Part shown: piece by piece, positions 3,699 through 24,660 of the stretch | Layout of the letters: each line of letters starts with the position of its first letter | Numbering within the stretch: the first letter of the stretch is position 1 | Notes under the pieces: generated by a model | Seen by the model: only the letters and a program-made list of their open reading frames with translations | What the model was told of the DNA's origin: nothing | The model's database searches: none | Made by a program: the position numbers and the translations under genes | From: a virus | Lineage: Duplodnaviria; Heunggongvirae; Uroviricota; Caudoviricetes; Peduoviridae | Length of the DNA: 31,694 nt | IMG/VR virus record: IMGVR_UViG_3300045988_104496 | Location: 1-31,694 of that record | Strand: one strand, 5' to 3'

Positions 3699-4889
3699 TT
3701 AATTGCTGTTAACCGAGGTGACCAGATTTGCCAGGTATTTATCGGTAATACGCTGGCGCAGGGTCAGGTTTTCGAGAGGAGGCACCGGTGTATAGTCGTA
3801 GTCGATATACAGTTTTCCGGCCTTGAGGGTTTCCGCATCGTTGGATTCTTCGCTGAACCAGCAGGTCGCATCCACGATATAGCCGTTTGTTTTCAGCTCA
3901 CGGAATTTGGCATTAATGCCGTCAACGATGTCGCGAATCAGCGTTGCGGTGATGGGCTTATCCACAGCCCACATGTGCGCCTCAGCCATCGTGTCGGCCA
4001 GCACCTGCGCAGTGCGGGTGTAGTTCTCAAAGAGGAACAGCGGGTCATCAGAGCAGGTACGGTTACCCCAGAAGCGGAAACCGTCGCGGCGAATCAGCGT
4101 TGTGACGCCTGCCTCGTTCAGCAGGTCAGCATCGGTGCCGGACTCCTGCAAATCCCAGAATACAGATGCGCTGATGCCGGTAACACCGTTCACCCCGACG
4201 TTGGACAGCGTTTTATGCCAGCCCTGCTCCTGGTCGATTTTAGCACGCAGCCCCAGCGCACGGGCGGTGGCATACGCGGTGGCGGTGGTACTGGCGACCG
4301 TATCCCATGCGAGGAAATCCGGCCAGATGACCATCAGCTCACGCTGGCTGAAATTCTGGCGGTAGGCTTTCACCTCGGAAATGGTTTTACAGCCCCATGC
4401 GCTGATATACCCGAAAGCGCGCAGCTTCTGACAGACTGATGCCAGTGCAACAGCCACCTCTTTGGTGTCCAGTCCCGGCACGCCGAGAATACGCGGTTTA
4501 ACACCGGTTACCGACTCCGCCGCCAGCAGGGCTTTCAGTCCGGTGTACTGACCGTTTTCGTCGGTGGTGCCGATGATATTGGAAACGGTCTGCGCGAGTT
4601 TCGTTTCTTCGTCTTCGCCGGTGCCGTCTTCCACACGCACGACAACGGTGACCGGTTTTGACTGGTCGGCGATGGCCTGTAACGATGCCGCCAGCGTGCC
4701 TTTTTTACCGGCCTTTGCAATTGCGCTCTGGGCATTGGTAATCAGCACAGGTTTATTGAGGGGGAAGGTTTCCGCATCCGCATCGCTGGCCGTGCAGACC
4801 ATGCCGACAATGGCAGTGGATACGGTGGAAATGACGCGGGTGCCGTCGTTAATCTCCAGCACCTGCACGCCATGATGATAGTCACTCAT
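3699..4889 (-). CDS. FI: Contractile tail sheath protein (P2 gpFI-like)
   Basis: 396-aa ORF, P2 FI size, first gene of the FI-FII-E-T block. Confidence 0.9.
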   Translation of the reverse strand: MSDYHHGVQVLEINDGTRVISTVSTAIVGMVCTASDADAETFPLNKPVLITNAQSAIAKAGKKGTLAASLQAIADQSKPVTVVVRVEDGTGEDEETKLAQTVSNIIGTTDENGQYTGLKALLAAESVTGVKPRILGVPGLDTKEVAVALASVCQKLRAFGYISAWGCKTISEVKAYRQNFSQRELMVIWPDFLAWDTVASTTATAYATARALGLRAKIDQEQGWHKTLSNVGVNGVTGISASVFWDLQESGTDADLLNEAGVTTLIRRDGFRFWGNRTCSDDPLFLFENYTRTAQVLADTMAEAHMWAVDKPITATLIRDIVDGINAKFRELKTNGYIVDATCWFSEESNDAETLKAGKLYIDYDYTPVPPLENLTLRQRITDKYLANLVTSVNSN

Positions 4890-4984
4890 CCGTTTAACTC
4901 CGTGGTTAATGGGTGCAACTATTTTCTGTTGTGCAGAGCATGAGACGCTATTTGACCTGGCTGGTCAGTGGATGAAACAACAGA

Positions 4985-5012
4985 TAAAGAAAAGGCGGGC
5001 AATTCGCCCGCC
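4985..5012 (-). terminator. Rho-independent terminator on the minus strand
   Basis: Minus strand reads GGCGGGC-gaatt-GCCCGCC followed by TTTTCTTT. Lies downstream of the low-GC accessory ORF and upstream of the FI start. Confidence 0.6.
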
Positions 5013-5218
5013 TGTCCTGATTTGAACTCACTCATTTTCCGACTGACAATTTACATAGCCCAAAAGTTATCAAATCTGACGGTCTGCTTTGAACAAGAAG
5101 CGGACATTTGCCTGTCAGGGTATATACCGCTCTGCGGTTATTATCCAGAATCAATAATTCATCTGAGTTGGATTACATATAAAACATAGTTACCCCATGA
5201 ATAACCATTAGCAGATTA

Positions 5219-5812
5219 TCAATTATGTAAATCTTTTGTTTTATGTTCTTTGGTGTGTTGTGACAACAAATGGCTATAGCGTTTAAGCAAAATATTAGAA
5301 AGATTAAGCTCATTCATGAAGTGTTCTTCTAATAAGTAACCATCAATATCAACTTTAATATCATTACCACTTTTCATCTTCTGTAACGTAGATTTTACAC
5401 GCTCCAGCAGGATGCTTTGCTCATGGTAATAGTCCATAAGAAGAGTAACATCCTCTTTATCAAGCTTACTTAATTCGCTGAAGTAGGATTTAAACACTTT
5501 ATCAGTCTGGTTTAATGCAATCTGTAAGCGAGGCCCCCCTAATGATTTGACATTAATGGCAAAAGGCTCGCCAACAAAATGCTCCGAATTTTCGTCAAAG
5601 CCAATATATCTCGTTTTATCAAGAAAAGTGAGAGCGCGATGGTTATTAGCGATTTCATATGCAAACATTGTTCTGATACTGTCCCTCTCAGCCTCCATAG
5701 TTATATCATCACGATGATTTGTATAAAATATATTTCCAACAAAGAGAACCATAGCAAGAATCACTGAACTTGCCTCCCAGTTAATATTTTTTAATCGTCG
5801 CTTAGTAAACAT
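5219..5812 (-). CDS. Low-GC accessory (moron) protein at the P2 Z/fun position; predicted single-pass membrane protein of unknown function
   Basis: 197-aa ORF with an AAGGTG Shine-Dalgarno 4 nt before the ATG. N-terminus is a basic stretch (KRRLK) followed by a hydrophobic helix (SSVILAMVLFVGNIFY). The gene and its flanks (about 4890..6033) are markedly AT-rich compared with the neighbouring tail genes. Sits between G and FI, where P2 carries Z/fun. Confidence 0.6.
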   Translation of the reverse strand: MFTKRRLKNINWEASSVILAMVLFVGNIFYTNHRDDITMEAERDSIRTMFAYEIANNHRALTFLDKTRYIGFDENSEHFVGEPFAINVKSLGGPRLQIALNQTDKVFKSYFSELSKLDKEDVTLLMDYYHEQSILLERVKSTLQKMKSGNDIKVDIDGYLLEEHFMNELNLSNILLKRYSHLLSQHTKEHKTKDLHN

Positions 5813-6033
5813 ACCGCACCTTAATTATCAAAAATATTCCTTCAGTGTTATCTGGTTAGCCTAAACCAAGTCATTAAAGTCTGCAGGATATCATATACAT
5901 AAAATGTATTGATTAGAATTTGCACTAATAAAATAATGCTTTACTAAAATCTACTCCAGACACAGAGCGGCCTGTCAGATTAGGCTTTACTCTGTGCCAT
6001 AGATATGTTTGCTCACTCCAGAGATCATACAAC

Positions 6034-6561
6034 TTATTGCGGCATTTCCGGCCATTCAGGATTTGCAGGATCCACACGACTGACCAGAACGCTGTAACGC
6101 TCCCATGCATCCAGTCGGCTACGCTCCTCATCTGTTGCCATGTTCAGTCTGACCGCGCGCTCCAGCGGCAAAATCACGGATTCAGCATCTGCAAGAAGTC
6201 TGGCTTTCCGGTTTTCTGCCTGCTGCAGCAATTCCTCTGCCGTATAAATGCGTTTAATCACTTTGCCGTCCTTAAACATCCAGTTCCCTGAAATGTCCGC
6301 CCGTCGGTTAGCAGTAATATCCGCCACTTCAACAACACTTAATCCATCCGGTCTGATAGCTGTCACATCCTTTTCCACATAGCGGATGATATTATCTTTG
6401 TCGTACGCTATTTTTAGCGTGTCATCAGCAAAATACTTTTGTTCTTCGTACCAGTTCTTACCATCTTCTGAAAAAAACCAGACAACATCAAAGTCTTTTG
6501 TCAATTGATATTGTTCAACCGTTTTTGGATTACCCGCCGTAATATTTTTTAAATGCTGCAT
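6034..6561 (-). CDS. G: Tail fiber assembly chaperone (P2 gpG / Tfa-like)
   Basis: 175-aa ORF directly downstream of the tail fiber gene, ending in the Tfa-type C-terminus (...[11 protein letters not shown]). Confidence 0.85.
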
Positions 6562-6564
6562 AAA

Positions 6565-9324
6565 TTATACCTGCGCCACGTTATACCATGTCCCGTTAAT
6601 GTATTTCTGAACCGGTCTGTAATATACACCACCAATGTTATCGGCAGAGTTTGAGCCGGTATCCTGAACAATAATGCCGGAATATACACACCCGGACGGT
6701 GCCTGATGTGTCCATGTCATGCCATTGTTCGCAGGTTTGTATGTGGCAGCACCACCAAGCCGGATATCCCGGACATAGCGGGAATCAAAGTTACCGTAAT
6801 CCGAGGGATTAACACGCCCCGTAATATTTATGGTTTTATTACTTTGAATACTTCCCGAGACAAAGCGCATAACATGGACGCTATTAGCATAAACATCCAG
6901 ATTACCATCACCATTTTGTTTAAAGCCCGTGTCATTATCACCCAAAACAATCGAATTACCGCCAAGAGCACTGGATGTTCCTATACCCAGAGCACCATTC
7001 AATTGACCACCAGATAACGGCAGTGCACCGACATCTCCCGCTGTAGGTTTTCGCGTTGTGGTATAAAACTCAGACCAGTCAGCCTCGAATCCGTAACCGT
7101 CACGAGCAGAACGATAAAAAATACCGCCGTTCTTATAATTAACGCGGAACTGGGCGGCGGGACAACTTCCTTCACCGATATTAAAATGAAGAATTAACGT
7201 TGATGCCCCACCAGTAGTTGCGTTATAGGCTCCGCTACTCCAGTTCCACCCAACGGCTTTATCATTCGCAACGGTGTCTCCTGTTTTTCCTGAAGCAAAT
7301 GCACCAATATTTTTCGGCGTCAGGTTAATATCTGATGTTCCATCAAACGAAACGTTATTAATTTTACGGGCTGTTTTCAGCTTTGTTGCTGTCGCCGCAT
7401 TGCCGGACAGTTCACCAGAAAGGCCAGCACTGAATGTCTGTTTCGCGCCCCATGTCTGGGCTTCGTCAATGATTGGTACTCGTCTTGCTGTGATCGTGCG
7501 GCTTCCCGGATTTCCTGAAATACGCACCATAAAAAATCGGTAGTTCGCTTTACTTACAGTGCTGCGCCATACATGCATTGAGCGCCCCGTACCGGAATCA
7601 TCACTCGGACCAACTGCGATGTTTATCAGGTTGCCATCAATGACGCCCCAGTCCATACCGTCGGGAATATTGGTCATATTATCCAGCCTAACGGTTATCA
7701 GACTGCCCGGCACAAAATCGTAGGTCTGCCAGTCCAGGCTGGTGAGCTTTGCCACAGCACCGCCGATACCCAGATTCAGGGGAAGTGAATACGAGGTGTA
7801 GACTTCCCGCCATTCGCTCCATGAGCTGCCGGTAAAGACGCGCTCAAAGGTGCGGCCTTTAAGGGTTGTACCTGTTCCGGCAGTTGTATAACGCTGCCAT
7901 ACATTAACACCATCAAACCGCCTCAACACTTCCAGAATGCCGAGTACAGTCACGCCGTTTCCGTCCAGTACTGGACCGTTGGTCGCTTTACCTGTAACGC
8001 TGTAAATACCTGGTGAGGTTACATCATTCAAATCACCTTCGTAATAACGACTCTCTGACTGATGACCGACTCTTAACCACGGTTCCCACTGCGGATTTGA
8101 TGCATCCCAGCTTGCCGCAAGGCAGCGGACATACATATTTCCACGGCGAGTGGTATAACGTTGCGTTCTTCCATAATTTCCGCCTTCGAGGATCTCAAGC
8201 ATCCCCTGAGCAAAGCCGCCTTCCTCTGGATAATTGCGTTCATATGAAGCTATAGCCGAGCTACTGTTACGCCATAAACCAAGATGTTCGGCGGCTCCAA
8301 GCGTATTCAGGTCTATAGTCGTACTCAAAGGGCGGGTAGCTGATTGAGTGTGACGCCATATGCCCCACGGACCATCAGAGCCATTCCACTTATTGGCGAG
8401 TCTGCGTATGTATACATTGCCGTCTCTCGTGGTGAAGCGTTGCGTACCTGCAAAATTGCCGGCAGCAAAAACCTCAAGCACACCGACAGCATTATCTTCC
8501 GGGAAATTTTTCTCCAGTGTTGCGTTAGTTGAGGTAGTTTTAGACCAGATTCCCAGATAAGCCTTAACGGGACCAAATGTATTCAGATCAGCATCAAGCG
8601 GCATTTCGCCATTGTTTTTCATAAACGTCAGGCTGGTAACGCCAACATTGTCCAGAAAAGCGTCCTTATCTGGAATATCGCCACCGTTCTGGTCTTTCTG
8701 CAGACGTTTCTCAGCATTGTCATAGGCTGCTTTTACTGCCTTTGGCGTTGCAGCCTGCTTTTCACTGGTGCTGTTTGTTGCACTGCTTAACTGAGTAAAA
8801 CCTTTTTCTGTCAGCGTGGCGTCAGGATGGCGGCGGGACTGCTCATGCTCTGCGATTTTGTCATCGACGTAATCCTGCGTCGCCATCACTGTGCTGGCAT
8901 CAATACTCAGCTCAACGGACGCCACGTTGCTGAGAATAATAACCATGCGGCAGGTCTGCGCACGTCCGGAGCCTTCAGCCAGTTCTGGCTTATAGCTTTC
9001 TGCCATGTTGGATACCGCAATCAGTGTTCCGGCATCGTCATACAGACCAAGCTCACGCATCCAGAAGCCGCCCACTTCTGGCGGAACAACCAGTTCAGCC
9101 ACGATATAGTTTTTATTCTTGTTATCCACACTGACTTTATTCAGTGCATGACGCCAGACTTCATGCACCAGTTTCGTCTGACCGGCATCCGGCACCGGCA
9201 ATTGGCCATTACCGTCACCCACAGCCATTGCAGACAGGTTTACTTTTTTCCCGCCGGGAACAGTGGCGGCTGCCAGCTTCGCGGCTCCGGCAGTAGTGAT
9301 AACGGTTTTAAATTTCGTGCTCAT
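6565..9324 (-). CDS. H: Tail fiber protein (P2 gpH-like N-terminus, divergent extended C-terminal receptor-binding region)
   Basis: 919-aa ORF. N-terminus MSTKFKTVITTAGAAKLAAATVPGG... is P2 H-like. The central part has three tandem repeats of about 80 aa sharing L..EVL/ILEG..N.G.TQRYTTR.G..Y.R. A GNAATATKL motif typical of long tail fibers is present. P2 gpH is about 669 aa from memory, so this one is longer and mosaic. Confidence 0.9.
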   Translation of the reverse strand: MSTKFKTVITTAGAAKLAAATVPGGKKVNLSAMAVGDGNGQLPVPDAGQTKLVHEVWRHALNKVSVDNKNKNYIVAELVVPPEVGGFWMRELGLYDDAGTLIAVSNMAESYKPELAEGSGRAQTCRMVIILSNVASVELSIDASTVMATQDYVDDKIAEHEQSRRHPDATLTEKGFTQLSSATNSTSEKQAATPKAVKAAYDNAEKRLQKDQNGGDIPDKDAFLDNVGVTSLTFMKNNGEMPLDADLNTFGPVKAYLGIWSKTTSTNATLEKNFPEDNAVGVLEVFAAGNFAGTQRFTTRDGNVYIRRLANKWNGSDGPWGIWRHTQSATRPLSTTIDLNTLGAAEHLGLWRNSSSAIASYERNYPEEGGFAQGMLEILEGGNYGRTQRYTTRRGNMYVRCLAASWDASNPQWEPWLRVGHQSESRYYEGDLNDVTSPGIYSVTGKATNGPVLDGNGVTVLGILEVLRRFDGVNVWQRYTTAGTGTTLKGRTFERVFTGSSWSEWREVYTSYSLPLNLGIGGAVAKLTSLDWQTYDFVPGSLITVRLDNMTNIPDGMDWGVIDGNLINIAVGPSDDSGTGRSMHVWRSTVSKANYRFFMVRISGNPGSRTITARRVPIIDEAQTWGAKQTFSAGLSGELSGNAATATKLKTARKINNVSFDGTSDINLTPKNIGAFASGKTGDTVANDKAVGWNWSSGAYNATTGGASTLILHFNIGEGSCPAAQFRVNYKNGGIFYRSARDGYGFEADWSEFYTTTRKPTAGDVGALPLSGGQLNGALGIGTSSALGGNSIVLGDNDTGFKQNGDGNLDVYANSVHVMRFVSGSIQSNKTINITGRVNPSDYGNFDSRYVRDIRLGGAATYKPANNGMTWTHQAPSGCVYSGIIVQDTGSNSADNIGGVYYRPVQKYINGTWYNVAQV
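7790..8580 (-). repeat. Three tandem intragenic repeats (about 80 aa each) within the tail fiber gene
   Basis: Seen in the translated ORF: ...GTQRFTTRDGNVYIRRL...W, ...GRTQRYTTRRGNMYVRCL...W, ...VWQRYTTAGTGTTLKGRTFERV...W. Coordinates are approximate. Confidence 0.6.
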
Positions 9325-12729: not shown

Positions 12730-12982
12730 CGTTTTCGTCCTGACAGTGTTTAATCATTTTTACCTGGCTGGCACAGCGTGCCAGCGCGTTCTCAAGCTGC
12801 CGGATATCGGCACTTAAATCGCCGTTCGTCTCCGGGTCACTGCCCGGCATCGGGCAAAGACTCACTTTCGGGCAGGCGTTGTGGACAATCACTGGCGTCG
12901 GTGCAGGCGGGGCGCTGGTGCAACCGGCGCACAGCATCAGGCAGGTCAGCGCCATACCAGCGGCGAAAATCCTCGTTTTCAT
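12692..12982 (-). CDS. lysC: Lysis lipoprotein LysC (Rz1-like), embedded in a different frame within lysB
   Basis: Internal start MKTRIFAAGMALTCLMLCAGC gives a signal peptide with lipobox LCAG|C and about 96 aa (P2 LysC size); proline-rich after the Cys. Nested in lysB as in Rz/Rz1 pairs. Confidence 0.6.
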   Translation of the reverse strand: MKTRIFAAGMALTCLMLCAGCTSAPPAPTPVIVHNACPKVSLCPMPGSDPETNGDLSADIRQLENALARCASQVKMIKHCQDENDAQTRQPAQGAD

Positions 12983-13262
12983 TAAGTAACCTCGTGATGG
13001 TTTTCTCGCGCAGTGCTTCACGCTTCGCGGCGTTCTCCAGTTCCTGACGCAGTGCCACCTGCGCCAGCTCGTTTTTGTCTGCCCTGGTGAGTGCAACATG
13101 AAGCTGATTTTTCAGCATGGTGATGGTCGTCTGCTGCCCGCTGGCGACGCTGTTCGCCCTGTCCAGTGAGGTGCGCAGGCTGGCGTTTTCATGCTTCGCC
13201 AGAAACAGCCCCGCCACCGCCAGCGATAACAACACGACCAGCACAATCATCAGCTTTGACAT
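12837..13262 (-). CDS. lysB: Lysis protein LysB (Rz-like spanin component)
   Basis: 141-aa ORF with N-terminal transmembrane segment (LMIVLVVLLSLAVAGLFLA) and coiled-coil remainder; P2 LysB size and position. Confidence 0.7.
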   Translation of the reverse strand: MSKLMIVLVVLLSLAVAGLFLAKHENASLRTSLDRANSVASGQQTTITMLKNQLHVALTRADKNELAQVALRQELENAAKREALREKTITRLLNENEDFRRWYGADLPDAVRRLHQRPACTDASDCPQRLPESESLPDAGQ

Positions 13263-13675
13263 AATTCCCGCCCCTCAAGACGCTGACGACAGGCTTTACG
13301 TATCAGCCGGAAAAACACCGACGCCACGAGGTAAATCAGCGCAGTAAAAATCCACCCGGCAGCGACCAGCGAGATAAACGTCGCCACCATCACCACCAGA
13401 GCCGCCGCCCGTCTGCGCCACGGCACCGGCTGCAAAAACAGCGACGCGACAATCTTCACGGCCAGCGATTCCGGCGACAGCTCCCGCCCGTAGCGCTCCA
13501 GTACATACTCTGTGGCATACACGCCGACACCACCGGCAACCACACAGATAACCGTCGCCAGAATCGCCCCGGCGGCGACAAAACTGACGGCCACGCTCTG
13601 CGGGTAAATCAGGGACAGTGCCAGCATCAGCGCCAGCGACACGTTCAGCATCAGTGAAAGGGATAATTTCTTCAT
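13250..13675 (-). CDS. lysA: Lysis regulatory membrane protein LysA
   Basis: 141-aa ORF with multiple hydrophobic helices; P2 LysA size and position. Confidence 0.7.
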   Translation of the reverse strand: MKKLSLSLMLNVSLALMLALSLIYPQSVAVSFVAAGAILATVICVVAGGVGVYATEYVLERYGRELSPESLAVKIVASLFLQPVPWRRRAAALVVMVATFISLVAAGWIFTALIYLVASVFFRLIRKACRQRLEGRELCQS

Positions 13676-13689
13676 GGTGTTTACTCCGT

Positions 13690-14187
13690 TTAAGCCGGTA
13701 CGCCGCCAGCGGTACGCCAGACGGTGACCAGTTTTTCCAGTGAATGCTCACGCTGACCGTAACCGGCTCCCGGCAGGGACGCCCAGATATTGCGACAGCG
13801 TGAAATAGCGCGCTCAATGCGTCCCGCCCGGATGTCATCCAGTGCACCGCGTTCGCGGATCAACTGAATGGCGAGCCTGTCCTGTGACAACGGACTGAAA
13901 TCCGGCAGGGCAAGCTGTTTGCGGTAGTGCGGCCAGAACAGGTAAAGCTGCTGATAGCGACCGGATGCCGTGGACTTTTCACCGCGACGGTTAAACACCT
14001 TCGCCGGTCGGCCATGCGCGAACGGGTGGTCACTGTAGTCGGTGAAAATTTCCGGCTTCCCGTCCAGTCCGGTGACTATCACGTCATAGCCCCGGTTTTT
14101 CGTCAGCGGATGGTTTGCCGTCCCTTCGGACACGGCCAGCATGTCGAGAAAGGCGGCGATATTCTGATGCGTGTTAATAACCGGCAT
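13690..14187 (-). CDS. K: Endolysin (P2 gpK-like lysozyme)
   Basis: 165-aa ORF, P2 K size, directly downstream of the holin. Confidence 0.9.
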   Translation of the reverse strand: MPVINTHQNIAAFLDMLAVSEGTANHPLTKNRGYDVIVTGLDGKPEIFTDYSDHPFAHGRPAKVFNRRGEKSTASGRYQQLYLFWPHYRKQLALPDFSPLSQDRLAIQLIRERGALDDIRAGRIERAISRCRNIWASLPGAGYGQREHSLEKLVTVWRTAGGVPA

Positions 14188-14468
14188 TACGGTTTCCCCC
14201 TGCCCTTAAAGCGGCGCTGAATGGCAATCTCAATCACCTGATAACCGGCGATACCCAGCATGGAGCCGATGCCGCACACCGCAGGCAGTGACAGGTCAGG
14301 AAACTGCACCAGAACAACACCGGCAACCATCGAGACAAAACCACCGAGCAACATGCGCCCGATAAACAGACGCGGGGTGATGGGTTCACCACCGGCAAGC
14401 ACCTTGCCGACAACAATCAGCACCCCAATCATGAAAAGCGACAGGACGCTTTTTTCTTCTGCTGTCAT
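14187..14468 (-). CDS. Y: Holin (P2 gpY-like)
   Basis: 93-aa ORF with two or three hydrophobic helices and a charged C-terminus (RRFKGRGKP); P2 Y size. Confidence 0.85.
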   Translation of the reverse strand: MTAEEKSVLSLFMIGVLIVVGKVLAGGEPITPRLFIGRMLLGGFVSMVAGVVLVQFPDLSLPAVCGIGSMLGIAGYQVIEIAIQRRFKGRGKP

Positions 14469-14471
14469 GCG

Positions 14472-14675
14472 TTACTCCCACAGATTGACAGTTTCAGCCA
14501 CGGGCGCGGTCTGAACGTCGGGCAGTTCGACGGCGGTGCCGTGTGGCAGCACCGCACCCAGTTCAGCCAGTCCCGGATTTGCGGCGAGCACGGTCTCAAC
14601 CACGCCCTCAGTGCGCCCGTAATACCGGACACAAATGGCGTCGAGCGTGTCGCCCTGTAGCGCAAAGGTCTTCAT
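14472..14675 (-). CDS. X: Tail protein gpX
   Basis: Six-frame ORF is 90 aa; the internal start MKTFALQGDTLDAI... gives 67 aa (P2 X size), and its ATG overlaps the L stop (ATGA). Confidence 0.75.
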   Translation of the reverse strand: MKTFALQGDTLDAICVRYYGRTEGVVETVLAANPGLAELGAVLPHGTAVELPDVQTAPVAETVNLWE

Positions 14676-15184
14676 CAGATTTGACTCACGATGCAGCGCG
14701 GCTTGCCCTGGATGCGCGCCACTGCCCAGCGCATATCCCGCCACAGCTCATCAATGGTGCTGTCAATGCTGTCGGCCTTCTTGTCGCCTTTCGCACTGGC
14801 ATCCACACCGCGATAACGTTCATAAAGCGACGCGGTCGCCATCGCACACACGGCGCGCTCGTAGTAAAAAACTTTGATGCTTTCACCGTCGATGTCGTCC
14901 GCCGGGACGTCCGCCAGACGCGTAAAACCGGCGGCAATTTTCTGTTCGCGGTACTCGTACAGCTCCGCATTCGTCTCCGCCATGCCTGACTTGATGGCCT
15001 CACGCAGACGGGCGGGGGCGACGGTCTGCTCAAGGCGCATACGTTCCCGGACGCGCTTCGGGTCGATATCGGGAAAAAAGAACGTGTTTTTAATCACCGG
15101 CTCGTCGCCTGCCGGTTGCGGGATGACCACCGTACCCTCACCGGACACGGGAGCCTCCTTTCGCGGAATAATCAGCGTCATCAT
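14675..15184 (-). CDS. L: Head completion/stabilisation protein gpL
   Basis: Internal start MMTLIIPRKEAP... gives 169 aa, P2 L size; the six-frame ORF extends to 15244. Confidence 0.8.
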   Translation of the reverse strand: MMTLIIPRKEAPVSGEGTVVIPQPAGDEPVIKNTFFFPDIDPKRVRERMRLEQTVAPARLREAIKSGMAETNAELYEYREQKIAAGFTRLADVPADDIDGESIKVFYYERAVCAMATASLYERYRGVDASAKGDKKADSIDSTIDELWRDMRWAVARIQGKPRCIVSQI

Positions 15185-21509: not shown

Positions 21510-22874
21510 ATGATTAATTTAATTATGGGTGGTTTTCCCGACCACTACGACCACTGGAAACCATTCAGCCAAAATAATGGAGAATTCTCATTTCTTTTAT
21601 CACGAATGTTTGAAAACACCTCCGATGGTATTCGCAAAAAACTATCCCCATTAAGCAGCAATGTACTATCTTATCTTGAAAAACTCCCAACAATATTCAT
21701 GAGTGAAGCTTATCAAATAGAGGGAGCAAAACCTTATTATGTCGACATACGAATTGGAAGAATTTCAAATATTCACATTAAGGGAAAAGAAATCAACTTC
21801 CAATTTGCAATCACCCATACACACAATGAAATCAAAATATCAGACGCCAAAAGTGTTGAAAGCAGTTTAGAACTCGGAACTTATGGCCTTAAAAGAACAC
21901 ACTGGGCCATAAAAGACAAAAATATAGATGATATCCTTAAGACATTTGGTATTAACCAAAATGCACAAGTGGATAGCAGTCCAGCGCCTCTCCCAGACGA
22001 AGATAGCACATTATTAACCGTAAATAGTTTACAAGAATTTATTGAAAAAGTTCTCCATATAACAGCAGATATGGATGAGGAGATTTTTTACAGGGGTCAT
22101 TCAGATTCATCTTATGAACTTGCACCATCTCTTTTCAGAAAATATGAAAATGGGAACTATAAATTTCTACATAATGAAATCAACCTTGTTAAAGAAGCAT
22201 TGAGCGCAAGACCCTCAGAATTCATTGATGATACATCAATGCTTGATAAACTTGTAAGAATGCAACATTATGGCATACCTACTCGCTTACTTGACATCAC
22301 ATCAAATCCATTAATTGCACTTTATTTTGCATGCAGTAGTATAAATTCCGACAAAAACGATATCGATGGTCAAGTAATAATATTTAAAACACACAGAGAG
22401 AACATTAAATTTTTCGATTCCGACACTGTCAGTTGCATATCTAATTTATGCATGCTATCAAAAGACATGAAAGACAAGCTTTCTTTCGAAGAAAGAAATA
22501 ATGATTTTAACAACTCTCATGCTTGCCTTAAACTCTTAGAATCCATAAAGCATGAAAAACCATATTTTCAAAGCATAATAAATCCAGATGATTTGGAAAA
22601 GATAATTTTTGTAAAAAGCAGGATAAATAATGAAAGAATATCATCTCAATCCGGTGCCTTTTTATTATTCGGTAATAACGCCGTTTTTCCTGAGATATCC
22701 AACGATCAGGCAGATAATTCACCATACAACTTTAAGACAGAAAAAATAAACATCAGAGACAAAAAGAAAATTTTAAAAGAACTTGCCGTGCTCAATATTA
22801 CTGATGCCACTGTATATTTAGGATTGGAAAGAACAATGAAACTAATCACAGAAAAATACACATTAAAAAATTAG
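21510..22874 (+). CDS. FRG-domain protein, function unknown; candidate anti-phage cargo gene
   Basis: 454-aa ORF in a strongly AT-rich island. Contains the two FRG-domain signature blocks, EEIFYRGHSDSSYELAPSLFR and LVRMQHYGIPTRLLDITSNPLIALYFAC, recognised from memory of the Pfam FRG family. AGGT 6 nt before the ATG. Sits where P2 has old/tin. Confidence 0.65.
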   Translation: MINLIMGGFPDHYDHWKPFSQNNGEFSFLLSRMFENTSDGIRKKLSPLSSNVLSYLEKLPTIFMSEAYQIEGAKPYYVDIRIGRISNIHIKGKEINFQFAITHTHNEIKISDAKSVESSLELGTYGLKRTHWAIKDKNIDDILKTFGINQNAQVDSSPAPLPDEDSTLLTVNSLQEFIEKVLHITADMDEEIFYRGHSDSSYELAPSLFRKYENGNYKFLHNEINLVKEALSARPSEFIDDTSMLDKLVRMQHYGIPTRLLDITSNPLIALYFACSSINSDKNDIDGQVIIFKTHRENIKFFDSDTVSCISNLCMLSKDMKDKLSFEERNNDFNNSHACLKLLESIKHEKPYFQSIINPDDLEKIIFVKSRINNERISSQSGAFLLFGNNAVFPEISNDQADNSPYNFKTEKINIRDKKKILKELAVLNITDATVYLGLERTMKLITEKYTLKN

Positions 22875-22982
22875 CATTCCATAACCAAAATATCTCCATA
22901 CTTCCCCGCAGAAATTAAGGCTACGGGGAAATAACATCAGTAAGTATCTTAAGAACAATATAATCACTTACAGGAACCTGTA

Positions 22983-23960
22983 TTAAAGTGCAGTACTTGC
23001 TTTTAATGTAAGCACCTTTGATCTATAACGTTGTTCAATTACCCCCATAGAATGCAATCGTCCAAATAACTTTTTGGCAGTATGAGTTTCTCTTGCACAC
23101 GCTGCATCCTTTATCATTTTCCAATATTCAATTTCTTGAGACATTAAAAGATGCTGCTTATTCCTGACTTTTAAAGAACCGCCCAAAACAATAACACCTG
23201 TTACCAACTTAGGCTTTTCTCTACTATAAATTTTTGTTTTATCCGCATGCATCACATGACCATGCTTATTTATTATTTTGCGAATCACTGAACAAAATAG
23301 TCTATTAACGTTTTGTCCTGAAAAAGTTAGATCATCAACATAAACAGACATATTTACGTGTAGTTTATTACAAAGTTGGTGTATTTCTCCGAACATTCTT
23401 GAATTTGCAAAATATGCAAGAGGCATACTAATCCTGCTACCTGTAGGCAAACGCCCATAGCAAGTACATATATACGATAATACATCCGCAACATCAGATG
23501 ACATCTTCATAACAGAAAAAAAGAATGAAAATATCATTTCTCTAGTAGTTGATGGAAAAAAAGCCCTGATGTCGGTTGTCATCAACCTTTCATTATTAAG
23601 GTGGATTTTAGCATTAGTAACATTAGAACATCCCTTCTTTCCAGAATGTAGATAATCTGGCAAGGTAATTCGCGATAGCAGACTTGCAATACGAGTATGC
23701 ACCACATCTAATTTTTCTAATGGTTTTTGTATCTTACGTGGCTTTCCGTTTTTAGATAACTGTTCAAAAATAGAATAATTGCCTTCATCTTTTTTTAAGG
23801 TTGATAAATCCCCTACATCAACCCCCAATAAAGAAGCCAATTTCCTTTTACTTCTCATTTTATAAAACGGCGAATCAATTATATCGTAAGATTTATTTTT
23901 AGTGGAAATTTTGAGTTTTATTCGTCTTTTCATTTTTCTTATTCGCCCACTCAATAACAT
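22983..23960 (-). CDS. Retron-type reverse transcriptase (start codon uncertain)
   Basis: Contains the retron RT hallmarks in order: NAxxH (VTNAKIHL), motif A (TDIRAFFPS), motif B-like LPTGSRISMPLAYFANS, catalytic YVDD (SVYVDDLTF) and the retron VTG motif (KLVTGVIV). Overall length and N-terminal pattern resemble Ec86-class RTs as I remember them. Alternative starts at 23933 (MKRRIK) or 23858 (MRSKRK); none has a strong Shine-Dalgarno. Confidence 0.8.
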   Translation of the reverse strand: MLLSGRIRKMKRRIKLKISTKNKSYDIIDSPFYKMRSKRKLASLLGVDVGDLSTLKKDEGNYSIFEQLSKNGKPRKIQKPLEKLDVVHTRIASLLSRITLPDYLHSGKKGCSNVTNAKIHLNNERLMTTDIRAFFPSTTREMIFSFFFSVMKMSSDVADVLSYICTCYGRLPTGSRISMPLAYFANSRMFGEIHQLCNKLHVNMSVYVDDLTFSGQNVNRLFCSVIRKIINKHGHVMHADKTKIYSREKPKLVTGVIVLGGSLKVRNKQHLLMSQEIEYWKMIKDAACARETHTAKKLFGRLHSMGVIEQRYRSKVLTLKASTAL

Positions 23961-24231
23961 CTAATACTTTACCAGCTAAATTTAAACGGAAACGCTTAGA
24001 TAAACGCCCCTGCGTACCTAACGATTCTGAAAAAAATACTAAAGAAGATACCGGCATATCGAAATGGGAGGCGTAACGCTGTAAAACATCAATTGTAGGC
24101 GACCAAACCCCACTTTCGAGTTCTACTATTTTTTCTTTTGGAATACCTAAAGATGTTGATAAATCAACCAATGACTCTTTATGGTATTGCCTTATTAAAC
24201 GAAGGGCTCTGTGTAACATAGGCAACTCCAT
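23899..24231 (-). CDS. XRE-family helix-turn-helix protein, directly upstream of the RT gene
   Basis: LHRALRLIRQYHKESLVDLSTSLGIPKEKIVELESGVWSPTIDVLQRYASHFDMPVSSL fits the Cro/C1-type HTH pattern. The likely true start is the second Met at 24219, which has GGAG 6 nt upstream. The 3' end overlaps the longest RT reading frame. Confidence 0.65.
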   Translation of the reverse strand: MELPMLHRALRLIRQYHKESLVDLSTSLGIPKEKIVELESGVWSPTIDVLQRYASHFDMPVSSLVFFSESLGTQGRLSKRFRLNLAGKVLDVIEWANKKNEKTNKTQNFH

Positions 24232-24255: not shown

Positions 24256-24411
24256 TTACTCATCACCCCCTTCAAAGTAGTCCAGTGCTCGAGTGGCTAA
24301 ATCAAACAGTCTAATACCCCATTTGATTAATTTCCAAACATAACCAGCCCACTTTTTCAGGTTTGACTTGTTCTGCGCCTGCTGTTCGTTGGTTAATTTA
24401 TCATTCTTCAT
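24256..24411 (-). CDS. Small ORF (51 aa) with a consensus Shine-Dalgarno; hypothetical small protein
   Basis: AAGGAG, a 6-nt spacer, then ATG at 24411; encodes MKNDKLTNEQQAQNKSNLKKWAGYVWKLIKWGIRLFDLATRALDYFEGGDE with a Trp-rich amphipathic segment. The 3' arm of the upstream hairpin (CATAAG) abuts and partly overlaps the SD. Confidence 0.4.
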   Translation of the reverse strand: MKNDKLTNEQQAQNKSNLKKWAGYVWKLIKWGIRLFDLATRALDYFEGGDE

Positions 24412-24660
24412 GATTTGCTCCTTATGCCCATAGTGTGCAAACGATATGTCTGCTCCAACACTATGGTTCGCCCTCATAAGGATGAGATTGAACAGCACTA
24501 GCCCCCTGCTCCACGAACCCTTGGTCGCCCAAAGGGTTCGAATACCCATACGCCATACCGCCTGATCCTGTGACTCTTGTCGCTGGCAGGGGCGTTGCGC
24601 GGGGTAAATGTTAGAAAGCGTTAACTTTCCACGGGTAAAGTTACCCAATTGATGGCGATG
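24412..24660 (-). ncRNA. GC-rich structured leader; candidate retron msr-msd ncRNA (boundaries not determined)
   Basis: A GC-rich patch inside an AT-rich island. On the minus strand there is a long imperfect hairpin of about 15 bp at 24421..24480, a 9-bp stem cgaaccctt/aagggttcg at 24514..24540, and further short hairpins at about 24612..24650. The only ORF covering it needs a TTG start and has odd amino-acid composition. No convincing a1/a2 inverted repeat pair was found by eye. Confidence 0.35.

Follow-up and report, generated by a model that had tools for sequence, protein, structure and literature searches.

What does the single gene lodged between the tail fibre assembly gene G and the tail sheath gene FI of a P2-like phage do? 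The gene lies in the IMG/VR virus record IMGVR_UViG_3300045988_104496 (Peduoviridae), and the window throughout this text is the whole stretch analysed, 31,694 nucleotides. The window is a P2-like phage genome with 99.98-100% identity to Peduovirus P2_2H1 (NC_049386), reverse-complemented and circularly permuted. The slot between G and FI is the fun(Z) position of P2, and an open reading frame (ORF) of 197 codons, here ORF197, occupies it. Three validated defence systems are known from this Z/fun locus, with fun in P2 itself (PMC9519451), and the hotspot is treated as a second defence-enriched locus of P2-like phages (PMC9519451; bioRxiv 2024.10.15.618418; PMC13586616). The answer we consider most likely, and hold tentatively, is that ORF197 is a single-gene exclusion factor acting at the cell envelope against incoming foreign DNA, chiefly that of other phages.

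The ORF list and the Pfam matches of the flanking genes placed ORF197 in the Z/fun slot as claimed by the original prediction, which had been made from the sequence letters, and added that it lies on the minus strand. G, ORF197 and FI are all encoded on this strand, so that ORF197 runs in the direction of the late genes, in contrast to fun(Z) in P2, which is antisense to them. In blastn comparisons the similarity to the P2 backbone stopped 72 nt past the G stop and started again 215 nt ahead of the FI start, so that the backbone borders are position 5961 towards G and position 5104 towards FI. ORF197 is the sole ORF of the exchangeable cargo between these borders. The GC content was 0.32-0.40 over positions 5100-6000 compared with 0.54-0.62 in the flanking sheath and tube genes, and 35% in ORF197 alone, in line with the AT-richness that had been predicted. 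The segment thus has two marks of a moron, a deviant base composition and a discrete insertion between conserved genes. No flanking direct repeats or att-like sites were found around the cargo, and an Rfam scan of positions 4800-6100 returned chance-level matches only. The G alleles differ among phages with the same ORF197 cargo, which shows that the cargo is not bound to one receptor-binding module. The neighbouring tail fibre protein H (6565..9324, minus strand) has 919 residues here; in P2, H spans 12734..14743 and has ~669 residues.

ORF197 is a real, conserved gene. At ~35% GC about 7% of random codons are stops, and a 197-codon open frame would therefore arise by chance with a probability of ~5e-7. 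The ratio of nonsynonymous to synonymous substitution rates (dN/dS) was 0.07-0.16 between genera, and a GC content of 31-37% was kept in every copy, whatever the host. This purifying selection and constant base composition point to a functional gene that moves horizontally. Conservation was full-length, with 53-70% identity in other genera and ~20-38% in distant members of the same architecture. The Shine-Dalgarno sequence (AAGGTG in the window) was found in 7/7 aligned homologous loci, where the motif is AAGGAG-like and its GG is invariant, which bears out the earlier claim that the gene has its own ribosome-binding signal. Database records are inconsistent: NC_049386 (15480..16025) and OV192280 (17235..17780; positions 1830-2375 of our locus L020) carry a 181-aa annotation from an internal start, which drops residues 1-16 and truncates the membrane anchor, and other entries are 99-aa fragments. 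We favour the 197-aa reading because both the Shine-Dalgarno sequence and the N-terminus are conserved. This inconsistency, and the lack of an annotation or domain for ORF197, are what could be said for a chance ORF or a decaying remnant without function, an explanation that purifying selection effectively rules out and that the length of the open frame, the full-length conservation out to distant members and the conserved Shine-Dalgarno sequence make scarcely credible.

The protein was predicted to be anchored in the inner membrane. One hydrophobic segment was found, at residues 13-31, with a KD19 score of 1.54 in ORF197 and above 1.6 in most homologues. The net charge of the flanks was +4 on the N-terminal side and -3 on the C-terminal side, and the family as a whole shows a net positive N-flank with a C-flank that is neutral or negative. 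Distant members have CxxxxC pairs in the C-terminal tail, which would fit an oxidising periplasm. The single transmembrane segment, the positive-inside rule, the CxxxxC pairs and a modelled helix that runs on from the membrane into the bundle all point in silico to an envelope protein with its N-terminus inside and its C-terminal domain facing the periplasm. AlphaFold2 run on 30 close homologues gave an unusable model, with a predicted local distance difference test score (pLDDT) of 51. An alignment of 42 sequences, including the distant members, was used instead and gave a pLDDT of 84.4 and a predicted template modelling score of 0.73. In this model a continuous helix at residues 12-66 forms the transmembrane helix and the first bundle helix (32-66), which together with helices 92-100, 105-116 (after a break at 101-104), 119-148 and 151-178 makes a four-helix bundle. 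The loop at 67-91 is conserved and the tail at 179-197 has low confidence. The signal anchor named in the original prediction was therefore recovered, and the C-terminal domain that it had called unfamiliar was modelled as a periplasmic four-helix bundle with no Pfam, PADLOC or PDB relative and no Foldseek match in PDB or BFVD at E <= 0.001.

In both alignments conservation was highest in the transmembrane helix, with N11, W12, E13, S16 and N27 as conserved polar positions. Such conservation exceeds the need of a passive anchor and suggests a specific intramembrane partner. Invariant residues were R47, N57 and L117, and S16, F24, A51, Y52, I54, Y128, F165 and S172 were nearly invariant. All members share the positive N-terminus, the single hydrophobic helix and a helical domain of ~160 residues, which opens with the motif IRTMFAYEI-x2-N.

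On this architecture ORF197 would be a stand-alone cargo gene for a bitopic inner-membrane protein, whose short positive N-terminus stays in the cytoplasm and whose single transmembrane helix leads into a periplasmic four-helix bundle of ~165 residues. From the inner membrane it would disturb a trans-envelope step of infection, either by binding the incoming tail-tip, tape-measure or ejection-protein channel, or by occupying, through its conserved transmembrane helix, a host inner-membrane factor that the channel needs. Adsorbed phages would then fail at genome delivery and the cell would survive. This reading best fits the combination of a single gene, an inner-membrane anchor, a periplasm-facing domain, a conserved transmembrane helix, a position in defence hotspots and repeated insertion into tail gene clusters. 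It is also favoured by purifying selection, mobility and frequency (201 of the 1018 locus-matching genomes described below). Moreover, the gene appears to work alone, being the sole cargo ORF and carrying its own 5' region and Shine-Dalgarno sequence into non-P2 contexts. We infer from these properties that ORF197 is expressed from the prophage, that it has a phage target and that it works by the mechanism outlined here.

ORF197 is a full-length member of PHROG 3829, a family of unknown function (phrog_3829 matches residues 1-197 of 197, E = 5.7e-137), and the same match was obtained for 42/42 aligned relatives. A word-indexed search of 5.8 billion clusters returned 38 clusters, and profile searches raised the family to ~50. 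An exhaustive profile search of 1.84 billion representatives found 29 members and no annotated relative, two further word-indexed profile searches added a subfamily of 217 aa without names, and a profile search of genome contigs with the alignment of close homologues gave two loci only. All named sources are Enterobacterales, namely Escherichia, Salmonella, Pantoea, Kosakonia, Pluralibacter, Enterobacter, Dickeya, Pectobacterium and Proteus. Pfam, NCBIfam and PADLOC models did not match ORF197, and for the 42 relatives these collections and PHROGs gave the unannotated phrog_3829 only. No published experiment on the protein was found, and searches of the literature and of the DefensePredictor supplements turned up no mention of it.

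The full cargo was present in 201 of the 1018 complete Escherichia coli genomes that match the locus (~3.7% of all 5426 searched), always on the chromosome. It was also found in 13 phage records, which represent 8 distinct phages and all belong to Peduovirus; cultured phages with the gene include P2_2H1, PhiR44_1, P2_AC1, D8 and 12W. Carriers include human clinical isolates and an avian pathogenic strain. The relatives (Table 1) are distributed among at least eight kinds of cargo site, and some of their neighbourhoods include restriction-modification genes. Exclusion is favoured by this distribution, since relatives occupy cargo or island slots of many elements, often beside known or putative defence genes. 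The pattern of contexts is typical of genes in conflicts between mobile elements, and its variety indicates that the protein works without a fixed partner. The post-primase site of the P4-like satellites is one of the minor P4 defence hotspots, and P2 and P4 almost never have defence genes in common (PMC13586616); if ORF197 is a defence gene, its family is an exception to this near-absence of sharing. In three unrelated settings an IS110-family transposase gene was located within ~0.3-1.5 kb of an ORF197 homologue: a Dickeya island (L004 6640-7662), a Salmonella integrative and conjugative element (ICE; L006 10117-11355) and a plasmid leading region (L025 5101-5724). This proximity could be a coincidence or a means of mobilisation.

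The same contexts bear on a second explanation, in which ORF197 is an abortive-infection protein that is both sensor and effector at the membrane. Once the periplasmic bundle detected damage to the envelope, or a phage component, at entry or late in infection, the transmembrane helix would oligomerise and depolarise the membrane, and the infected cell would die before any progeny formed. Hotspot and defence-island positions serve this explanation as well as they serve exclusion, and the highly conserved transmembrane helix with polar residues and the sensor-like fold agree with it. Two distant or truncated relatives lie directly 3' of large nucleoside triphosphatase (NTPase) genes on the same strand, one 45 bp downstream of a 593-aa KAP NTPase (L013 4172-6585) and one after a 1524-aa AAA protein (L009 1152-6489). 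They resemble sensor-plus-membrane-effector pairs and may be two-gene versions of the system. One relative also adjoins a putAbiC-domain gene. However, ORF197 is predicted to cross the membrane only once, leaving just ~12 residues in the cytoplasm, and in P2, P4 and most other contexts a partner gene is lacking. No PADLOC or Pfam model of abortive infection was matched, and the likeness in fold is generic to four-helix bundles. We regard abortive infection as quite unlikely.

A third explanation keeps the envelope location and removes the phage target. ORF197 would then be a lysogenic-conversion factor, either an orphan immunity protein against a periplasm-acting toxin (a bacteriocin, or an effector of type VI secretion (T6SS) or contact-dependent inhibition) or a small anchored protein that acts on a host sensor or transporter in the inner membrane and so alters surface or stress properties. 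A periplasmic domain with a type-II anchor also occurs in colicin M immunity and in connector proteins such as MzrA. Rhs/WHH toxin-immunity cassettes (L019) or T6SS genes (L026) occur close to some relatives, non-defence cargo is also found in P2 hotspots, and the negative results of the lysogen panel described below are compatible with such a role. NCBI names family members either hypothetical protein or lysogenic conversion protein, and the latter name speaks for this explanation, although it could not be traced to any experiment in the literature. Most contexts lack a linked cognate toxin gene, and ORF197 has no similarity to a known immunity or connector family. The hosts range from gut and clinical to plant-associated Enterobacterales, a breadth that speaks against virulence in one particular niche. 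We treat conversion as an unlikely alternative, though slightly less so than abortive infection.

The signals around the gene were examined on both sides. On the 5' side, ~150 bp upstream of ORF197 were conserved with Pantoea cassettes outside P2; the conserved stretch includes TATGAT (5895..5890) and the block TTTTTGATAATTAAGG. Since this region is conserved outside the P2 context, the cassette brings its own 5' region with it, and this region may contain a promoter. It holds a weak sigma-70 candidate, TTCTAA (5918..5913) separated from TATGAT by a 17-nt spacer, which scored below the threshold of the promoter scan.

On the 3' side, the terminator scan found a rho-independent terminator (5013..4993) with a 9 bp stem, 7 GC pairs and a following T-run (fold -20.1 kcal/mol, z = -3.3). 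The original prediction had described a moron with a downstream terminator. The strong terminator does exist, but it lies in the conserved P2 backbone and is common to P2, Wphi and 569R9 despite their different cargo, and it is therefore not the cargo's own; the only strong terminator of the slot belongs to the backbone. Together with the G stop, the backbone terminator frames the cargo slot. A 73-aa ORF (4968..5189, plus strand) overlaps this terminator and the promoter region and is probably no gene, and shorter forms of it are annotated as hypothetical protein in some phage records.

The hairpin just past the G stop (5996..5955) has no canonical T-tract and was not called by the terminator scan, and late V-operon transcripts may for this reason run into ORF197. 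The hairpin itself could be a leaky terminator or a stabiliser of the RNA 3' end for the tail-fibre operon. The exact dyad of Ogr-type late promoters, TGT-N12-ACA, matched twice in the window and neither match was at an expected late promoter, the exact pattern being too strict to be informative upstream of ORF197. Read-through is the core of a fourth explanation, in which ORF197 is the last gene of the V-W-J-I-H-G late operon and blocks re-adsorption of progeny or their injection into the dying cell, or tunes lysis from the periplasm as T4 RI does. The strand shared with G and FI, the weak hairpin after G with the first strong terminator on that strand only at the far end of the slot, the late-gene orientation of other cargo ORFs of the slot (Wphi orf44 and the 183-aa ORF of 569R9) and the proximity to the receptor-binding module are all consistent with a late function. 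Yet neither a tail operon nor a lysis cassette is present in the satellites, ICEs, plasmids and chromosomal islets where relatives are found, and the ORF197 cassette takes its conserved 5' region into such contexts. The phage already has a complete lysis cassette (holin, endolysin and spanins), and the same cargo stands beside different G alleles. A late-phase role is improbable.

Several observations weigh against envelope exclusion as the function of ORF197. Guilt by location is weak evidence, and the same hotspots carry toxins, partition systems and tail-fibre cassettes (bioRxiv 2024.10.15.618418). An intact ortholog of 197 aa with ~95% amino-acid identity is present in P2_AC1. When this phage was lysogenic in E. 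coli C, protection extended to lambda and LF82_P8 only, and the cloned TIR system reproduced it (Rousset et al. 2022). The panel consisted of lambda, T4, P1, 186, CLB_P2, LF82_P8, AL505_P2 and T7 and contained no T5-like phage. As TIR explains the protection by P2_AC1, no extra protection was evident against T4, P1, 186, CLB_P2, AL505_P2 and T7. PADLOC-DB 2.0.0 gave 0 families at E <= 10 for ORF197 and only scattered single-member matches for the 42 relatives, and no annotated exclusion PHROG was matched at E <= 0.1 by any of the 42 members. A profile search found no PDB sequence relative, and no known exclusion or defence protein was recovered by sequence or fold. Foldseek searches of PDB and BFVD found nothing beyond generic helical bundles. 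The promoter scan was not above chance (2 found, 3.8 expected), and the sole match placed to drive ORF197, with its -10 ending at 5824, would put the transcript start within the Shine-Dalgarno sequence. Since ORF197 points the same way as the late operon and no clear terminator separates it from G, it may also be a late gene. Nothing was found that links it specifically to T5. The earlier suggestion of a superinfection-exclusion or defence protein is thus supported by the hotspot, the topology and the mobile contexts beside defence genes, and weakened by the absence of a match to a known system and by the P2_AC1 lysogen without extra protection.

Envelope exclusion remains our preferred, tentative reading, and it can be taken one step further. 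ORF197 might be a new, self-sufficient single-protein barrier at an inner-membrane DNA-entry step common to different invaders, where the transmembrane helix docks onto a host membrane factor and the bundle recognises the incoming channel. In P2-like phages its expression might have two phases, one from its own promoter in the lysogen and one by late read-through of the tail-fibre operon. A step common to all these invaders would explain why P2-like phages, P4-like satellites, siphophages, ICEs and plasmids carry the gene. We consider this extension decidedly unlikely as it stands.

The locus and the idea of hotspot cargo are already known, and the gene is in the databases as a hypothetical protein. 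What appears to be new is the definition and delimitation of the family, a confident model of its fold and the argument for its topology. New as well are the movement of the family among several kinds of cargo site, the assignment of the terminator to the backbone and the position of the gene on the late strand. A specialist would not be surprised to see an unknown gene at this position named as a defence candidate; this one is common and tractable. If it proves to be an exclusion or defence factor, it would represent a new family within a known strategy, adding a protein family and a fold to the few envelope-level exclusion factors on record, a group whose mechanisms are little understood. 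If it excludes phages, it would be a frequent and uncatalogued determinant of phage susceptibility that bears on phage therapy and host-range prediction. As a single 594-bp gene that is easy to clone or delete, ORF197 offers a clean test of guilt by hotspot.

The features discussed here are listed in Table 1 with those of the other P2 hotspot of the same phage (gpA-portal; window 21510..24219), which holds a type VI retron and an FRG-domain protein.

Table 1. Features of the window around ORF197 and at the other hotspot, followed by relatives of ORF197 in other elements (positions refer to the window unless a locus is named).
Feature	Position	Strand	Basis or remark
ORF197 coding sequence	5219..5812	-	ATG 5812 to stop 5219, 197 aa plus stop; ORF list
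Positively charged N-terminus MFTKRRLKNINW	5777..5812	-	
Single transmembrane helix (signal anchor), codons 13-31	5720..5776	-	Hydropathy and flank charges
Predicted periplasmic domain, four-helix bundle, codons 32-197	5222..5719	-	
Shine-Dalgarno sequence AAGGTG	5817..5822	-	4 nt 5' of ATG; read from sequence
Conserved 5' non-coding block moving with the gene	5888..5917	-	Kept in Pantoea island loci L019 and L016, outside the P2 context
Hairpin just past G stop, 10 + 4 bp	5955..5996	-	Mostly in conserved flank; RNA fold z = -2.2
Rho-independent terminator, late strand	4993..5013	-	206 nt past ORF197 stop, directly upstream of F-operon promoter region; terminator scan
Exchangeable AT-rich cargo segment, 856 bp	5105..5960	.	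blastn against P2, GC profile
Gene G (tail fibre assembly)	6034..6561	-	Pfam Caudo_TAP 2.2e-34; annotation of identical records
Gene FI (tail sheath)	3699..4889	-	Pfam Phage_sheath_1, Phage_sheath_1C; annotation
454-aa FRG-domain protein	21510..22874	+	Matches PADLOC candidate PDC-S15, E = 7e-98
Retron RT_VI	22983..23933	-	E = 1e-105
Retron HTH_VI gene	23899..24219	-	
130-aa ORF without annotation	24256..24648	-	
Relative in P2-like contig			Portal-side hotspot #1, directly after KAP NTPase
Relatives in P4-like satellites of Pantoea ananatis and Kosakonia	L007 5402-6001; L014 ~5989-6591		After primase (primase-att hotspot); 62% identity
Relative in Pectobacterium siphophage			Between tape-measure and distal-tail genes, opposite strand
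Relative at end of Salmonella lambdoid prophage			Adjoining DNA methylase and DUF4928 gene
Relative in Salmonella ICE			Among tra genes
Relatives on plasmids			IncFII plasmid; plasmid leading region beside ArdA
Relative in CP4-like island			After CbtA/CbeA, before HNH protein
Relatives in integrase islets			
Relative in Dickeya chromosomal islet			Beside SIR2 and DUF87
Relative in Proteus mirabilis chromosomal islet			Beside putAbiC and HD protein

The comparison with known systems starts with the gene that holds this slot in P2. P2 Fun(Z) excludes T5 and causes sensitivity to fluorodeoxyuridine (FUdR). Like ORF197, it is a single non-essential cargo gene between G and FI of a P2-type genome. 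However, Fun(Z) has 528 aa and runs antisense to the late genes, whereas ORF197 has 197 aa, lies on the late strand and is predicted to be membrane-anchored. The two are not homologous, the best BLASTP match (E = 2.1) covering 19 residues. Two further classes were considered and rejected. The 4HB_MCP / TarH sensor domain of chemoreceptors (Tar, Tsr, PcaY) comes with a Pfam match, a second transmembrane helix and a cytoplasmic signalling module, and ORF197 has none of the three. The i-spanins (Rz / LysB-like) have a similar architecture, but the cargo contains no partner ORF, the spanins of the phage are encoded elsewhere and relatives of ORF197 occur in non-phage elements. The one family to which ORF197 belongs over its full length, PHROG 3829, is itself without known function.

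The closest parallels are found among proteins that block entry. Lactococcal Sie2009, T4 Spackle and P1 Sim are small products of single phage genes that combine an N-terminal anchor or signal with an extracytoplasmic domain and block entry after adsorption. ORF197, likewise small, encoded by a single gene and anchored with a predicted extracytoplasmic domain, may be compared with them by analogy, with no basis in homology. HK97 gp15 is an inner-membrane protein that blocks DNA entry and is encoded by a moron inside the tail gene cluster. P22 SieA is likewise described as an inner-membrane protein blocking DNA entry (PMC10883804). Both differ from ORF197 in size and architecture and have no detectable homology to it, and both depend on tape-measure or ejection proteins. 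What ORF197 would share with both is the location in the inner membrane, and the genes for gp15, ORF197 and the Pectobacterium relative all lie in tail gene clusters.

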